The position numbers and the translations under genes were made by a program. Below the pieces are notes generated by a model. That model ran no database searches, was not told the DNA's origin, and worked only from the letters and a program-made list of their open reading frames with translations. From positions 1,240,001 to 1,304,000 of the forward strand of contig ML996688.1 of the NCBI GenBank assembly GCA_010356995.1: a DNA stretch of 64,000 nt, written 5' to 3'. Below are positions 17,118-23,371 of the stretch, piece by piece. Position 1 is the stretch's first letter. Every line of letters begins with the position of its first letter. The stretch comes from Trichodelitschia bisporula. Taxonomy: Eukaryota.

Positions 17118-19960
17118 ATGGCAACATACTCGTACGGCATGTCCACCCAGCGCCGGAAAATCACGACCTACGGGAAGGCGTCGCGCACCACCCAGTACAG
17201 CCTACTGCCAAATGAGCCATCTCCCGAGAAGGCAACGCCTGCTTCGCGAACCTGGAGAGCCGGATTGACGAAGTCCGTTGCCGGTGGCACCTCGCAGTCC
17301 ACGCGACCGAGCTCCGGCAAGCTTGTCCGTCCCGCATCTAGCCGCCCCGCCGCCGAAATGGACGTCTTCGACGTACCCTCTGATGACGACACGGCCGTCA
17401 AGCGCCCTCCAGTCCGCGTCACTCGCAGTGTCAGCCGCCAACCCGAGACCCCGCGACCGAAGACCGCCATAGCCGTGTCCAAAAACAAGGGCGCGCTTGC
17501 TGTGGAGGAGACGTCGTCGACACAATCTGCGGAGACAATAGCCAAGCGCAAGGCAGAGGAAGTGAGAGGTTCCTCCAAGCAGGAAGCGGTGCGCAAAAGA
17601 GCTAAAACGGCGCATGTGGAAGCGAAGGTCGATCTGATCGCTACGAAGGTCACTGCGAAGAAGGTCACTGCGGCGAAGGCCACTGCGACGAAGGTCGCTG
17701 CGACGATGCAAACCGAGGCCTCGGTATGCACATCATCTCACCCCAATGTCAAGCGGCCCGCCGATGCGCAAACTTCCACTGTGGACGAACCCGTCAAGAA
17801 ATCGCGTCGCATTGGTGCTACGCCGAATCCGCCTCCCACTACCAGCAAGGGAGTCTCGGCGCCAGCGGCCCTCGCTCGCATGGTCACCAAGCGTGACAGT
17901 CCGCGGAAGGGCACAGCGCGGCGTGTTGCGGTTGGGCCGCCCACGCCTTCCACCCCGCCACCAGCCTCTGGCGATGACATTCTCCTGGAAACTCCGATAC
18001 GAAACACCTCTTCTTCTCCAAAGGCTCCTCGATCGGCTGCTGTCACGCCCCGACAGAAACAAATGTGGGAGAAGCTCTTTGACGACGCCACCGATGGCCC
18101 TAAAGAATGGTCTGCTGGACCATTGGACTCGGCTCCGGTTCCGGCTCCCCGTAACCTGCGTCGTTCCCAATCTGAGGTCGCCTTCCCGCAGAAGAAACGT
18201 GTGCGGCTTGTTGAATCACTAAAGGCAACCGCCGATGTCATCGAAGAGGAGGGGGAATTTTCCTCTGATGAATCTGCAGCGGAGAACTCGCCCGCGAAGT
18301 CCAATGCCGTCATGGACCGCAGTTCTGTGGACCTCCAAGACTCACAGCAGCTCACAAACTCTCAGACTCCAGTGTTCAAGTCAGCGACCACGAAGATCAC
18401 ATATGGTCAGCAGCGCACCTATCTCGAGGACAAGAGCGAGGATGTCTTCCTGAATCTGCTCACCCAAGACATCACGAATGATTCTCAGCGGTTGATCCCA
18501 GAAGATGAACCGGAAGAAGAAAGTCAAGGCCAACCGAAGAGCGTCCATGACCTCAGGGCCGCTGGTTCAAGGAAGCGACTTCTTGACGGCCTGGAGGCGC
18601 TTATCTCCGAAGTTGAGGGGCAAGGAATGAGCTCCATGTCAAGCCGGTGCAGCGCCATGATCGAACTCATCACGAAGCTCAGAGAGCCAGACGCCCTTAC
18701 CTGTTTCTTCGACCACGGTTTGGACCGGTCCTTCGTCCGAAGCTGCAAAGAGCCCTCGGAGATCGCCTTGAACTGCCTTGCGGCCTTTGCCTTCAGCGTT
18801 ATCATTCACGGCGGAGCTAACCTGATGGTTCTTCAGAGCATACAGAAGTCTGACTGGTTTCAAAACGCCTTGACATTGCTGCCTTTTGAACAAGATATGT
18901 CAAAACTCTTCAAGGAGCGCCGGTTCAATATGTCAAGGATTGCGCTCTCCTCGTTTGTCGAACTGCAGGCAACCATTCTGGGCTCTGACATCTGGGCCGA
19001 CGGGAAGCCGAAAGCTGTGTCTCCACGCGCTATCGTACTCCGGACGCTAGATCAGCTTGTACGGCGGATGCGTGAGCTTGGTAGTCGCGATACCATTTTC
19101 GACGACAAACCCATAACTGCTCTTCTGTCCGTTGCCGAGTCGCAGCTCAAGAAGGATGACGATCCGCTAATTTTCGAATTGGTTCTGTCGATTCTGGAGT
19201 CCAATTCTCTGGCGACCCAGATTCCGAAGAAACCCTCTACGTCGTCCATTGGCCATCTCACTTCGATCAGTGGCATCTTGTCGACATTCTTCTCCCGGCC
19301 GCGCACGGAGGCCAGAAGGGTGGAATCGCTGAGCTTGCGACTCTGCCTAAATCTGACAAATAACAATCCCCGTGCGTGCGAAATATTCGCCACTCCTGCG
19401 CTCACCAAACCGCTTCTTAATTCCATCAACGAGATGTTCGCCTCCCTCGACTCAAGCCTCGACAGTCAGGAGCACACGAAGACCCTGGATCAGCTTGTCC
19501 TCACGCTGGGAGCCATGATCAATCTCGCCGAGTTCAGTGAGCTCGCCCGCCTTTCCTTGGTGAAAGGAGATTGCGCTCCGCTTGATCGAGCCGTTAGACT
19601 GTTCCTTGCGAGCCTGGAACGTGCCGAGCAGGTATTTTGCGTCTGCGTCACCCACTTTCCAGAAGCTAACCGTTGCAGGCCGATTCGATGGAGGCATCTC
19701 AGACCAATGTGGCTTACGGCTACCTGGCCGTCTTCCTTGGAAACCTGTGCCAGAACAAGCAAGTTCGGGCCCGTGTTCGTGTCTTACTTCCCGGGCAAGG
19801 TTTGGATTCACTTATTTCGGCGGTTGATGAGTTCATTAAGATCAACCAAAAGGCGGCGAAGGAAATGCTCAATGGACAAGAGGGGAATGAGGTGTACACG
19901 AAGTACACGAACCGTCTGCTGGAGGTTGTTGAGAGGCTGCGATGGGTGCGAGATTCCTGA
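17118..19960 (+). CDS. WAPL: Wings-apart-like (WAPL/Wpl1/Rad61) cohesin release factor, 2 exons (intron 19632-19678)
   Basis: Long disordered N-terminus, KITYGQQRTYL, PKSVHDLRAAG start of the WAPL domain, LRLCLNLTNNN, LGAMINLAE, YGYLAVFLGNLC. Confidence 0.85.
17645..17704 (+). repeat. 4 x 15-bp coding tandem repeat (GAAGGTCACTGCGRN)
   Basis: Encodes KVTAK-KVTAA-KATAT-KVAAT inside WAPL. Confidence 0.9.
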
Positions 19961-20313
19961 GTAATTGAATCATTGACCTTTGCGGCGTTGGGCTTCGGCA
20001 CGACTTATGATAGATACCCATAGTGTTTGAACTAGCGGAATGTAAGGGCTTTTTACGTAGGCATTTTGAGGTGTCAAGCGATATGCTGGCTCCGGCAATG
20101 CTCTCTGGTACATACAGGCAAGACGACTGTCTGCTTCTTAGCTTTGCAATTTACTTGTAGTGATACTGCTAGAACTAGTGTCGGCAAACAGGTGGGCTCC
20201 AATGAGCACCAGCTGCTGTGTAAGATGGGGCTGCCTACATGGCAAGCTGTCAACATGTCGCATCAAATGGCGAGCTTTAAGCAGCTGAGATGCAGGTTCA
20301 CTAACTTCGCGGC

Positions 20314-20835
20314 TCACTCATGCCCTTCTAACACACCAAGAGCTTGCAAAACTCTGGATCTTCTTCTGTTATCAGGCTGTTGAGCATCCTGATTCCGCAC
20401 GATCGAGTCGATGGCAGTTCCACAGTCCCGCCTGATCTCGGCATAACTCAGCGTCAGGAATTTCGGGTTGATGAGGAAGTATACGGTTCCAGACAGGGGC
20501 ACCGCGTCTTTAGTGAGGGGGGTGCCAGTCGTACGATTAAGGTTTCGAGCCGCCAACTCCTCACCAAACGCGTCCCTCAGTCTTCGAACGTTGTGATGTC
20601 GAACCGTAGGTTTTAACTTCAGCCTGTTGGGGGTGATGACGTGCCACCAGACGCCCTCTTGTGGACGAGCATTCCATCGGCGTCGGACTTCGATGGAGCG
20701 CGGGTGGGATGCAGCGGTGATGATCAGGCGGCCAGTTGCGCCTATGAGGTACTTCCGTTTGTAGAACTGATATGAGAAGGAAGCATAGGTACCCCGGAGG
20801 GTCGGAATAAGACCGTCGCTAGTTCTTAGATCCAT
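20314..20835 (-). CDS. Hypothetical basic protein with an RnpA (bacterial RNase P protein)-like C-terminal half; true start may lie upstream (20934)
   Basis: GVWWHVIT..KPTVRHHNVRRLRDAF...LSGTVYFLINPKFLTLSYAEIRRDC parallels the RnpA pattern RLGxSVSKK..AVxRNRxKRRLREAF...LxGxDhVVhARKxAxxLSYAEL. CDS likely; RnpA identity is inference. Confidence 0.65.
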   Translation of the reverse strand: MDLRTSDGLIPTLRGTYASFSYQFYKRKYLIGATGRLIITAASHPRSIEVRRRWNARPQEGVWWHVITPNRLKLKPTVRHHNVRRLRDAFGEELAARNLNRTTGTPLTKDAVPLSGTVYFLINPKFLTLSYAEIRRDCGTAIDSIVRNQDAQQPDNRRRSRVLQALGVLEGHE

Positions 20836-21320
20836 GGCGTAGCGGGCAGACGTCGGGATTGAGGAGGGCAAGGGGGCCCAGAATGTCCTGAGGATTGTCC
20901 GGGTGGTTGGGCGCCGCGACGGGTATATTCACATGGAATTTTATGGAGGCCTAGGAGGTGCTGCTAGAAATTGGGGGCCTGCCAAGTCTGCACTTGAATG
21001 GTACGTAGGCCTAGCGCCACCGAATAATTCATAGCCGACCTGCTTACTCGTTTTGCGGACGGGAGCGGTCACGACCTTTTAAGATGCCCTGGGCCACTAT
21101 TATTTCAGACCTTAGTCACACCCCCACAGCCGGGGAAAGTGACGGCCCGTGGCCGTGGCGGGTGAGGGTCCTCCCAGGCTAGAGCCGATTTGCCCCGCCG
21201 CTGAACGCATTCCCACTCATATTTAACAACTCCACCACCAAACCCTTTGGTCAAACAAAGGCTCCTCTTTACCCCAAAACCGCATCACCTACAGAATCGA
21301 ACCTTTTCCAAAGATCTACT

Positions 21321-21939
21321 ATGCCTAAGAACAAGGGCAAGGTATGTTTGTCCTCGACCACGTCCCTTGCATTTGCGCGCGCATCTGCTGACGAGGGGTA
21401 ATGTAGGGTGGTAAGAATCGCCGTCGCGGCAAGAACGAGAACGACAACGAGAAGCGTGAGCTTGTGTTCAAAGAAGATGGCCAAGGTACGTTACTGGTCG
21501 CCAGCGGTGCATCTCACAGAGCGCTGACCGCCGTACAGAATACGCGCAAGTGATCAAGATGCTGGGCAACGGCCGCCTGGAGGCGAAGTGCTTCGATGGT
21601 CCTACACGCCTCGCCCACATACGTGGCAAGCTTCGTAAGAAGGTGTGGATCAACCAAGGCGACATCATCCTGCTGTACGTTTATCGCTCTCCCTGAAACA
21701 CGGTCAAGCTCGCCACTAACGAACCCAGGTCGCTTCGCGAGTACCAAGATGGCAAGGGCGATGTCCTCATGAAGTACTCCGCCGACGAGGCTCGCTCTCT
21801 CAAGGCCTACGGTGAGCTTCCCGAGACGGCGAAGATCAACGAGACCGATACCTATGCGGACGAGACGAACGAGGGCATTGGCTTCGAGTTCGACGAGGAC
21901 CGTAGTGACTCTTCAGAGGTCGAGATCGACGATATCTAG
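21321..21939 (+). CDS. TIF11: Translation initiation factor eIF1A, 4 exons
   Basis: [50 protein letters not shown], acidic tail ending EIDDI*. Confidence 0.98.
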
Positions 21940-23371
21940 TCGAGGGGCCACACGACGCGTTGCTTGGAGGATGGAAACCCTACTGGACGATCTTTCGCGG
22001 TGGTGCCGCGTATTGCATATCAAGCTCTCGGTCTTTGGCCGCAGACACGTTACGAATGGGGAGGTTTAGCGGGGGAGTTGCGGTTGTTCGGGAGGGCGTA
22101 CATGGTGCCGTTTTGCCATCTGGCGGGTATCAAAAGTCGTCAGCTTTCGGCGACAGTGTAGCGCATCCGCAAAATTGAGCTAGAGTTCCTGGTTCGAGGA
22201 CCTGAAAGTCTTTTGAGTCTGTGATTCCGTATCCATGGTCAAACCAACCACCATCGAGTTACTCCAGGGCAATCATATCCTGGCACATCAGCCAGAAACC
22301 AGTTCAACATCCCATGTCCGATTCTGTATGGTGCCTCAAGATTTGAAGCATATCGCCTATATATAGAAATACAGGCAAAGGCAGCCTATCGGTATCTCTG
22401 CTACCTAGCCGCTTAGACACCATGAATTATCAATCAATCCCCACACCACATCCCAATAAGTTGGGGAACTTGTAGGGGTAGGATGCCCACAGGAGCTGGC
22501 TCGCGTCAACTTTCCATACCCCTCAGGATTGCAGGACTGAGGATCCCCAAGCACCGATGACGGATGCATCTATACACGCTAGACTTCTGATTATGCAGAC
22601 TGCTCGCATTTCAAAGGAGACTCATCCGCATTAAGGTTTAACGACCGGAAGAAAAGACGGGTGGGATAGGAAAAGGCGGTTACGACAGCAAATCAAAATT
22701 CTCTAAACACAAGTTCTGTGTCACCGACGTCGTTCCTTTACCGTTGCTCCCCTTGGCCTCGCGGCTGAGCTTCAAGTTGAAGGCAGCCCGAACTCATTCC
22801 CCGCACGAGGTGCAGCGTCGTATGCGGCTTCGTAAATTGCCGACCAGAGGCGCGACTCAGAACCCCGAAAGCTGTGGAAATTATAGGAAGCTTGCTCCGA
22901 AAATTCCCTTCAGCTCGGTTCGTGGCGGCGACGAGGAGAAGGAGGGATGGGTTACTATGGTAGGCATGCACATGCACATGTTGGTTAGAACTAGTACCCC
23001 GCTTGGTTGGAGGGGGAGAGCCGGCATTACATCAGGCGCGCCGCCCCCAGTAGTCGAAGGGGAGGTCATGAAAAGAAAGCTCTGGCTTTAAGCTCCCCCT
23101 CTCACCCTTCCTTTAGCAATCCCCGTAATGACACTGCACCTTTGCGCTTTGGCTTGTTAGAGTTCTTTGATCGTTCCCTCTGATTGCTTTTCTGTATCTC
23201 TCACAGGCCTTTCGCCAAATCGCCGGAAATCTACCGCTTAAGATCAAAAATCCGTGACGCGCAACCAGTACCAGTCCATCCCTCACAGCGTCGCGCTATT
23301 CCGCCTGTCCCGGTGAACCGCGCCGAACTGCTCATAAACCCCAAACTGTGTCTCCGAATCGAGAAGTCGCC

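Follow-up and report, generated by a model that had tools for sequence, protein, structure and literature searches.

In the 64-kb stretch of Trichodelitschia bisporula DNA analysed here (the window), a minus-strand open reading frame (ORF) of 522 nt, encoding 173 aa, lies exactly at positions 20314-20835. It is located in the 1.35-kb gap that separates two plus-strand genes, those of a WAPL homologue and of eIF1A (Table 1). The computed mass and pI of the product, 19.9 kDa and 10.8, confirm the basic protein of about 173 aa that a preliminary description of this DNA had placed here.

Transcript contigs were available from two public runs (X1 and X2, from one sample of one study), which are labelled 'RNA?' and not on record as RNA, and which give no basis for ranking expression. 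These contigs cover positions 20305-20992 with zero joints within the coding sequence, and the GT..AG introns of both plus-strand neighbours are spliced out in them. Moreover, one X1 contig carries the joint 20233>20305, whose ends CT..AC (cut +1) correspond to GT..AG on the minus strand and delimit a 71-nt intron in the 3'UTR. From the contig cover and this joint we conclude that the ORF is transcribed from the minus strand, with one coding exon and a 3'UTR intron. The gene is real and transcribed, and its position between the WAPL and eIF1A genes, together with the spliced 3'UTR intron, supports a nuclear location, as had been claimed. Rfam (gathering thresholds) and ARAGORN gave no match anywhere in the window.

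Table 1. Position and strand of the genes at the locus and of the predicted elements of the RnpA-like protein (positions in the window; residues of the 173-aa product).
Feature	Position	Strand	Basis
WAPL (wings apart-like) cohesin-release factor homologue	17118-19964	+	PF07814, E 1.7e-72
3'UTR intron, 71 nt, starting 8 nt past the stop codon of the RnpA-like gene	20235..20305	-	X1 contig joint
Coding sequence of the protein with predicted RnpA fold, single exon, 173 aa	20314..20835	-	ORF list, transcript contigs, 94 homologues
Predicted long C-terminal domain helix, residues 131-152, placed on the last RnpA helix	20380..20445	-	AlphaFold model, hhalign
Predicted strand TVYFLIN, residues 116-122	20470..20490	-	AlphaFold model
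Predicted Arg-rich helix, residues 76-96, TVRHHNVRRLRDAF..., putative counterpart of the RnpA RNR helix	20548..20610	-	hhalign, HMM alignments
Predicted strand VWWHVI, residues 62-67, the GLWW motif of the family	20635..20652	-	AlphaFold model, hhalign
Family-specific insert, predicted helices 33-40 and 47-56, with the HP(L) motif (H44, P45)	20668..20739	-	AlphaFold model
Predicted strand 1, residues 20-26; F20 in 57/93 members	20758..20778	-	AlphaFold model, column counts
Transcribed 5' leader with uORF	20836..20992	-	contig ends 20949 (X2), 20992 (X1)
eIF1A	21302-22012	+	PF01176, E 1.5e-18

Some details of the neighbouring genes were also recorded. The WAPL homologue has a long N-terminal half rich in Ser, Pro, Lys and Ala, and its gene contains a 47-nt intron (19628-19674) confirmed in contigs from both runs. 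Three short introns of the eIF1A gene, at about 21340-21404, 21484-21536 and 21675-21728, are likewise confirmed by contigs. The WAPL and RnpA-like genes are convergent and the 3' ends of their transcripts probably overlap, because one contig continues from one gene into the other. The eIF1A and RnpA-like genes are divergent, and roughly 300 nt separate their outermost contig ends.

A family of uncharacterised Dothideomycete proteins

A phmmer search of 1.84 billion representatives with the query protein returned 94 proteins at E ≤ 1e-3, 9 of these at E ≤ 1e-10. The nearest relative is only 34% identical to the query, which indicates that the family is fast-evolving, and the 90%-identity cluster of the query has a single member. 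In a word-indexed protein search the query retrieved itself only, and the alignment used as query retrieved 4 proteins. When 30 of the 94 relatives were looked up, 13 proved to be named records from ten species (Patellaria atrata, Bimuria novae-zelandiae, Lophiotrema nucula, Phyllosticta capitalensis, Corynespora cassiicola, Venturia effusa, Venturia inaequalis, Microthyrium microscopicum, Tothia fuscella and Verruconis gallopava), the others coming from metagenome or run assemblies. We take these ten species all to be Dothideomycetes. Every one of the 13 named records is labelled 'hypothetical protein' or 'uncharacterized protein', and a search of the full-text literature, most subscription journals lying outside its coverage, turned up no account of a fungal RnpA homologue; to this extent the protein is indeed uncharacterised, as had been suggested.

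The alignment used throughout (A1) contains 93 sequences, one relative, P0016, having been left out as repetitive. P0016 is a protein of 456 aa in which query residues 11-31 are matched seven times and to which many spurious Pfam rows are attached; its match to the query is probably a low-complexity artefact. In A1, G116 is invariant (93/93), and L62, W63, R79, R84, R85, A89, L94, G98 and G104 are nearly so. The conserved motifs include the GLWW motif (L62 in 85, W63 in 86 and W64 in 79 of the 93 members), the Arg-rich helix (R79 88/93, R84 84/93, R85 88/93, R87 77/93, with Trp at position 81 in 58/93) and, in the insert, H44 (60/93) and P45 (63/93). Furthermore, all 84 members that start with Met have a pI above 9.9.

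Predicted structure and comparison with known folds

With the 93-sequence alignment, AlphaFold returned a model with a pLDDT of 89.3 and a pTM of 0.78, whereas the single-sequence model (pLDDT 30.4) was of no use. The model contains strands at residues 20-26, 62-67 and 116-122, and helices at residues 33-40, 47-56, 76-96, 124-128, 131-152 and 156-165. The order strand-helix-strand-helix that had been read from the sequence is recovered in the model as strand 62-67, helix 76-96, strand 116-122 and helix 131-152.

Foldseek gave no match to the PDB at E ≤ 0.001; RNase P protein entries fill nine of its first 12 listed rows, with E-values of 0.1-0.9 and TM-scores by target of 0.43-0.56. Counted among these nine rows is 4JG4, which we take to be the B. 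subtilis P protein, its title being silent on this point. In a structural re-comparison over the Foldseek list, RNase P protein occupies the top nine rows (Z 8.7-6.7), followed by EF-G (5.5). VIA-align was run against 48,161 representative PDB chains, and its top three matches are all three RnpA representatives, the RNase P proteins of T. maritima (1NZ0, Z 8.6, rmsd 3.1, 94 residues), S. aureus (6OV1, Z 7.9) and E. coli (2LJP, Z 6.9), superposed over 92-94 residues with rmsd 2.9-3.5; a best Z of 7-8 is commonplace when a model lacks a clear Foldseek match. In this wide search the next family follows closely, the lowest RnpA row having Z 6.9 versus 6.4-6.3 for RNase W and the RNase E 5' sensor, after which come EF-G domain IV, GHMP kinases, RNase PH and Lon. 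The training of AlphaFold included RnpA structures. In the ESM Atlas, whose own model of the query protein was used, the TM-score to a bacterial RnpA cluster is 0.55, and of the 30 named clusters that are nearest by features, 29 carry PF00825. A combination of AlphaFold and Foldseek had been proposed as a check of the RnpA assignment: the RnpA fold is indeed the nearest, as VIA-align ranks it, but Foldseek itself yields nothing at its significance threshold.

The superposition extends over the whole domain, model residues 7-149, and places only 92-97 of the 173 residues on RnpA chains of 109-119. The likeness to RnpA that had been seen in the C-terminal 95 aa or so is thus borne out, but its extent is not, since it reaches almost to the N-terminus. 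According to the model the protein has an RnpA-like fold, an S5-domain-2-like α-β sandwich with the crossover strand - RNR helix - strand; the handedness of this crossover is implied by the superposition, with an rmsd of about 3 Å over 92-97 residues. The other S5-domain-2-like folds (RNase E 5' sensor and RNase W, EF-G domain IV, RNase PH, GHMP kinases, Lon) belong to the same fold class, at Z 6.4 to 4. They differ from RnpA in this comparison by their lower Z, by being domains of larger proteins, by having no Arg-rich helix in register and by giving no sequence signal.

Sequence comparison with bacterial RnpA

Searched alone, the query finds no Pfam family at E ≤ 10, gives one chance-level row against NCBIfam (E 0.21) and has no match among PDB sequences. 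The family profile searched against PDB sequences at E ≤ 1 gave two chance-level rows only, MxiI and PE25, and therefore offers no structural context for any complex. Scanning the relatives against Pfam gave a different picture, as PF00825 (Ribonuclease_P) matches 8 of the 94 at E ≤ 1. P0010, which is found with E 3.1e-10 from the query, reaches 22.9 bits over profile positions 31-108 of 109, where the gathering cut-off is 22.3 bits; it is the only one of the 94 relatives above this cut-off, with P0009 just under it at 22.0 bits. The six weaker matches are short, five of them at profile positions 47-76, which is the RNR helix, and one at the C-terminal helix. No other Pfam family recurs in more than three relatives, the matches of P0016 aside. 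As the query has no match and its relatives do, its link to PF00825 is transitive, through the family. The comparison with Pfam Ribonuclease_P that had been suggested is accordingly answered in the negative for the query and in the positive for one relative.

For profile comparisons, a set of bacterial RnpA sequences was assembled from proteobacterial genomes. PF00825 was matched in all 61 genomes sampled, the loci from the best 30 were used, and 29 RnpA domains were cut from these 30 loci, one being missed by the E. coli seed. Alignment of the family core with the 29 RnpA domains by hhalign covers 69 columns and the elements strand-helix-strand-helix with P 0.0034, but with a probability of only 9.4. 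With the unedited alignment P is 0.0056, and against the single E. coli RnpA the match is weak (probability 2.4). The family HMM was also searched against the six-frame ORFs of the 30 loci, 544 in all with a lower length limit of 70 aa. Ranks 1-4 among these 544 bacterial ORFs are all RnpA (hypergeometric p 7.6e-6); six RnpA ORFs are within the best 10, and 15 are within the best 30 (p 2e-13). Over the whole ranking the Mann-Whitney p is 4e-15, and 8e-15 versus length-matched decoys. In the reverse direction, 8 of the 93 family cores reach 5 bits or more on the proteobacterial RnpA HMM, with a maximum of 16.7, versus 0/93 for reversed sequences (maximum 2.3) and 0/93 for shuffled ones (maximum 2.8), the differences from these controls having p-values of 2.5e-9 and 1.1e-7, respectively. 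The query itself scores -2.1 bits on this HMM. At the level of sequence, these comparisons exceed what chance would give and support a distant relationship of the family to PF00825.

The putative counterpart of the RNR helix

The RNR motif lies in the second helix of RnpA, with the consensus A-V-x-R-N-R-x-K-R-x-x-R-E. By hhalign, the VWWHVI strand of the query falls on the RnpA strand that precedes this helix, and in the register given by hhalign and the HMM alignments the query segment T-V-R79-H-H-N-V-R84-R85-L-R87-D-A-F falls on the bacterial A-V-x-R-N-R-I-K-R-x-x-R-E-x-F. R79 is aligned with the first Arg of RNR, and R84 and R87 with conserved arginines of RnpA, in line with the Arg spacing that the preliminary description had recognised. 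Its further observation that the N-R of the motif is replaced by H-H holds in the same register, where H80-H81 take the places of the Asn and the second Arg. The RNR consensus is not retained in the family, these two residues being H-H in the query and S-W in most relatives. Two helix types can be distinguished in A1, R-S-W (for example in Patellaria, Bimuria and Corynespora) and R-H-H (in Venturia, Tothia, Verruconis and the query); the helix of Microthyrium (R-Q-Y-H) is close to the latter. As Venturia, Microthyrium, Tothia and Verruconis have an RHH-type helix, the replacement of NR by HH is a subfamily trait.

Discussion

Bacterial RnpA (the C5 or P protein; PF00825; structures 1NZ0, 1A6F, 6D1R and 2LJP, and the holoenzyme 3Q1Q) is, like the protein studied here, small and very basic. 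The fold predicted for the family (Z 8.7-6.7, 92-97 residues), the order of its elements and three arginines of the RNR helix in register are further points of likeness. In contrast to bacterial RnpA, which has about 110-120 aa, the query has 173 aa, the additions being a C-terminal tail, a long loop that follows the Arg-rich helix, and two helices between strand 1 and the GLWW strand. It also differs from bacterial RnpA in having R-H-H for RNR, no PF00825 match, and a eukaryotic nuclear gene with an intron. We regard the family as RnpA-derived, but it departs from RnpA in two features, the Pfam score of the query and the RNR consensus; its RnpA ancestry is well supported and, in our judgement, very probable.

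Nuclear RnpA genes have precedents in eukaryotes. They are described in the prasinophyte alga Ostreococcus tauri (PMC4919922) and the jakobid Andalucia godoyi (PMC7050145), both of which have organelle genomes that encode P RNA; these proteins keep a recognisable RnpA domain, whereas the fungal family is far more diverged. The O. tauri protein is reported to be active together with organellar P RNAs in vitro and to rescue an E. coli rnpA ts mutant (PMC4919922). A different solution is found in S. cerevisiae, where Rpm2 has the role that we propose here, that of a nuclear-encoded partner of the mtDNA-encoded RNase P RNA. Rpm2 is described as a PPR protein (PMC6097661) and has no sequence or fold relation to the query. 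As far as the consulted parts of the literature go, PRORP is missing from fungi (PMC10941002), and no protein of an RNA-based organellar RNase P has been identified other than Rpm2, which is restricted to budding yeasts (PMC3790967). The latter source further states that the mitochondrial RNase P of A. nidulans comprises seven polypeptides of 16-55 kDa that were never identified, and it gives the Neurospora enzyme as unknown (PMC3790967). Given the lack of PRORP, the restriction of Rpm2 to budding yeasts and the nuclear RnpA precedents, an RnpA-derived protein of roughly 20 kDa is an obvious candidate cofactor. A mitochondrial RNase P role of the family protein is plausible to us, with the doubts weighing slightly more than the confidence.

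In the explanation that we favour, the family protein would be imported into mitochondria, where its conserved Arg-rich helix (R79, R84, R85, R87) would bind the RNase P RNA encoded by mtDNA (rnpB), the putative partner, and the protein would thus act as cofactor in the 5' maturation of mitochondrial pre-tRNAs. Co-evolution with a degenerate fungal P RNA would then account for the extra helices and for the changes to the RNR motif, which reads R-H-H in the query and R-S-W in most members. Taken as a whole, the explanation of an RnpA-derived nuclear protein serving as mitochondrial RNase P cofactor stands, in our estimate, evenly balanced between being right and wrong.

The main rival is a descendant of RnpA that no longer serves RNase P, and that as a basic RNA-binding protein would have another job, such as mitoribosome assembly, stabilisation or translation of mitochondrial transcripts, or a nuclear or nucleolar RNA process. 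We hold this to be unlikely, though it deserves serious consideration: the Asn and second Arg of RNR are replaced family-wide, the family has strongly conserved motifs of its own (HPL, GLWW) and two inserted helices foreign to RnpA, and the N-terminus of the query is not presequence-like. C. cassiicola also has a member, and rnpB goes unmentioned in two reports on its mitogenome. On the other hand, three arginines of the helix that binds P RNA are in register and kept in 77-88 of the 93 members. The family profile, moreover, finds none of the chains in solved structures; as fungal mitoribosomes are among the structures in the PDB, this argues against a stable mitoribosomal protein. Finally, fungi cannot do without a protein for mitochondrial RNase P, and budding yeasts are the only fungi for which one is known in the text consulted (PMC3790967).

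The likeness might instead be one of analogy, an unrelated S5-domain-2-like protein having an Arg-rich helix without RnpA ancestry. Many S5-domain-2-like proteins are found at Z 4-6.4 (RNase E 5' sensor, EF-G domain IV, GHMP kinases, RNase PH, Lon), the statistics of the sequence and fold searches are weak (hhalign probability 9.4, Foldseek E of at least 0.1), and Arg-rich helices could attract each other in profile searches. Yet RnpA came first in three separate structure searches and in the ESM Atlas structure search, P0010 passes the curated PF00825 cut-off over positions 31-108 and so beyond the helix alone, the hhalign match spans four elements over 69 columns, and reversed or shuffled sequences of equal composition never reach 5 bits, so that we consider analogy improbable. 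Far less probable still is the idea that the frame is open by chance, within intergenic or UTR sequence, and yields no functional protein: the ORF does sit in a 1.35-kb gap between two well-known genes and is alone in its 90%-identity cluster, but it has 94 homologues with motifs conserved across Dothideomycete orders, a confident fold prediction and transcript contigs with a minus-strand intron. The homologues, the confident model and the transcript contigs rule out a UTR artefact.

The presence of rnpB in Dothideomycete mitochondria bears on the partner proposed in our preferred explanation. Bipolaris (Dothideomycetes) mtDNAs have rnpB. For Corynespora cassiicola, which has the family member P0026, the word 'rnpB' is absent from the main text of two published mitogenome studies; one of these annotated its mitogenomes (56 analysed) with MFannot and MITOS2. 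The family may therefore not track rnpB, although it is possible that rnpB is present in C. cassiicola and unreported. For Venturia, the literature searched yielded no usable report of rnpB in mitogenomes.

Outside the Dothideomycetes, the ESM Atlas contains fungal clusters with PF00825: two of the 29 clusters counted above are fungal, one from Basidiomycota (18% of members) and one from Zoopagomycota (82%). As some fungal proteins carry automatic PF00825 labels, databases partly 'know' the wider family. A domain recognisable in 82% of the Zoopagomycota cluster and unrecognisable in Dothideomycetes would fit co-evolution with the RNA. Zygomycete mtDNAs known at the time all had rnpB, mostly near the universal consensus (PMC3790967). 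It is tempting to suppose that the present family and the Basidiomycota and Zoopagomycota clusters together are the missing mitochondrial RNase P protein of fungi other than budding yeasts, inherited from the mitochondrial ancestor and co-evolved with degenerating P RNAs (RNR to RSW or RHH), but we offer this as a speculation that is rather unlikely to hold in full. If it were true, persistence of the protein where rnpB is unannotated would point to a cryptic RNA subunit or to a new RNA-independent role. More generally, a conserved nuclear protein of roughly 20 kDa with a predicted RnpA fold provides a concrete candidate for the fungal mitochondrial RNase P outside budding yeasts. Nuclear-encoded RnpA would extend from prasinophyte algae and jakobids to fungi, and the family would be a natural case of change in the RNR helix as the partner RNA degenerates.

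Import into mitochondria can be considered in the light of the N-termini. A net charge of at least +2 over residues 1-20 is shared by 69 of the 84 members that start with Met, and 50 of the 84 lack acidic residues in this stretch. The first 20 residues of the query have a net charge of 0, with Asp at positions 2 and 7, and do not resemble a presequence. If the wider proposal were true, a mitochondrial isoform of the query gene might start at a non-AUG codon in the in-frame leader.

The transcribed 5' leader contains a minimal uORF, ATG-TGA (20929-20934, minus strand). Immediately after it, 31 in-frame codons (20836-20928, minus strand; IYPSRRPTTRTILRTFWAPLPSSIPTSARYA) lead up to the annotated ATG. 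With 5 Arg, 9 Ser/Thr and zero Asp/Glu this stretch resembles a presequence, which makes a non-AUG-initiated mitochondrial isoform conceivable, although the chance of zero Asp/Glu in 31 random codons is estimated at about 0.1 and the pattern could easily have arisen by chance.
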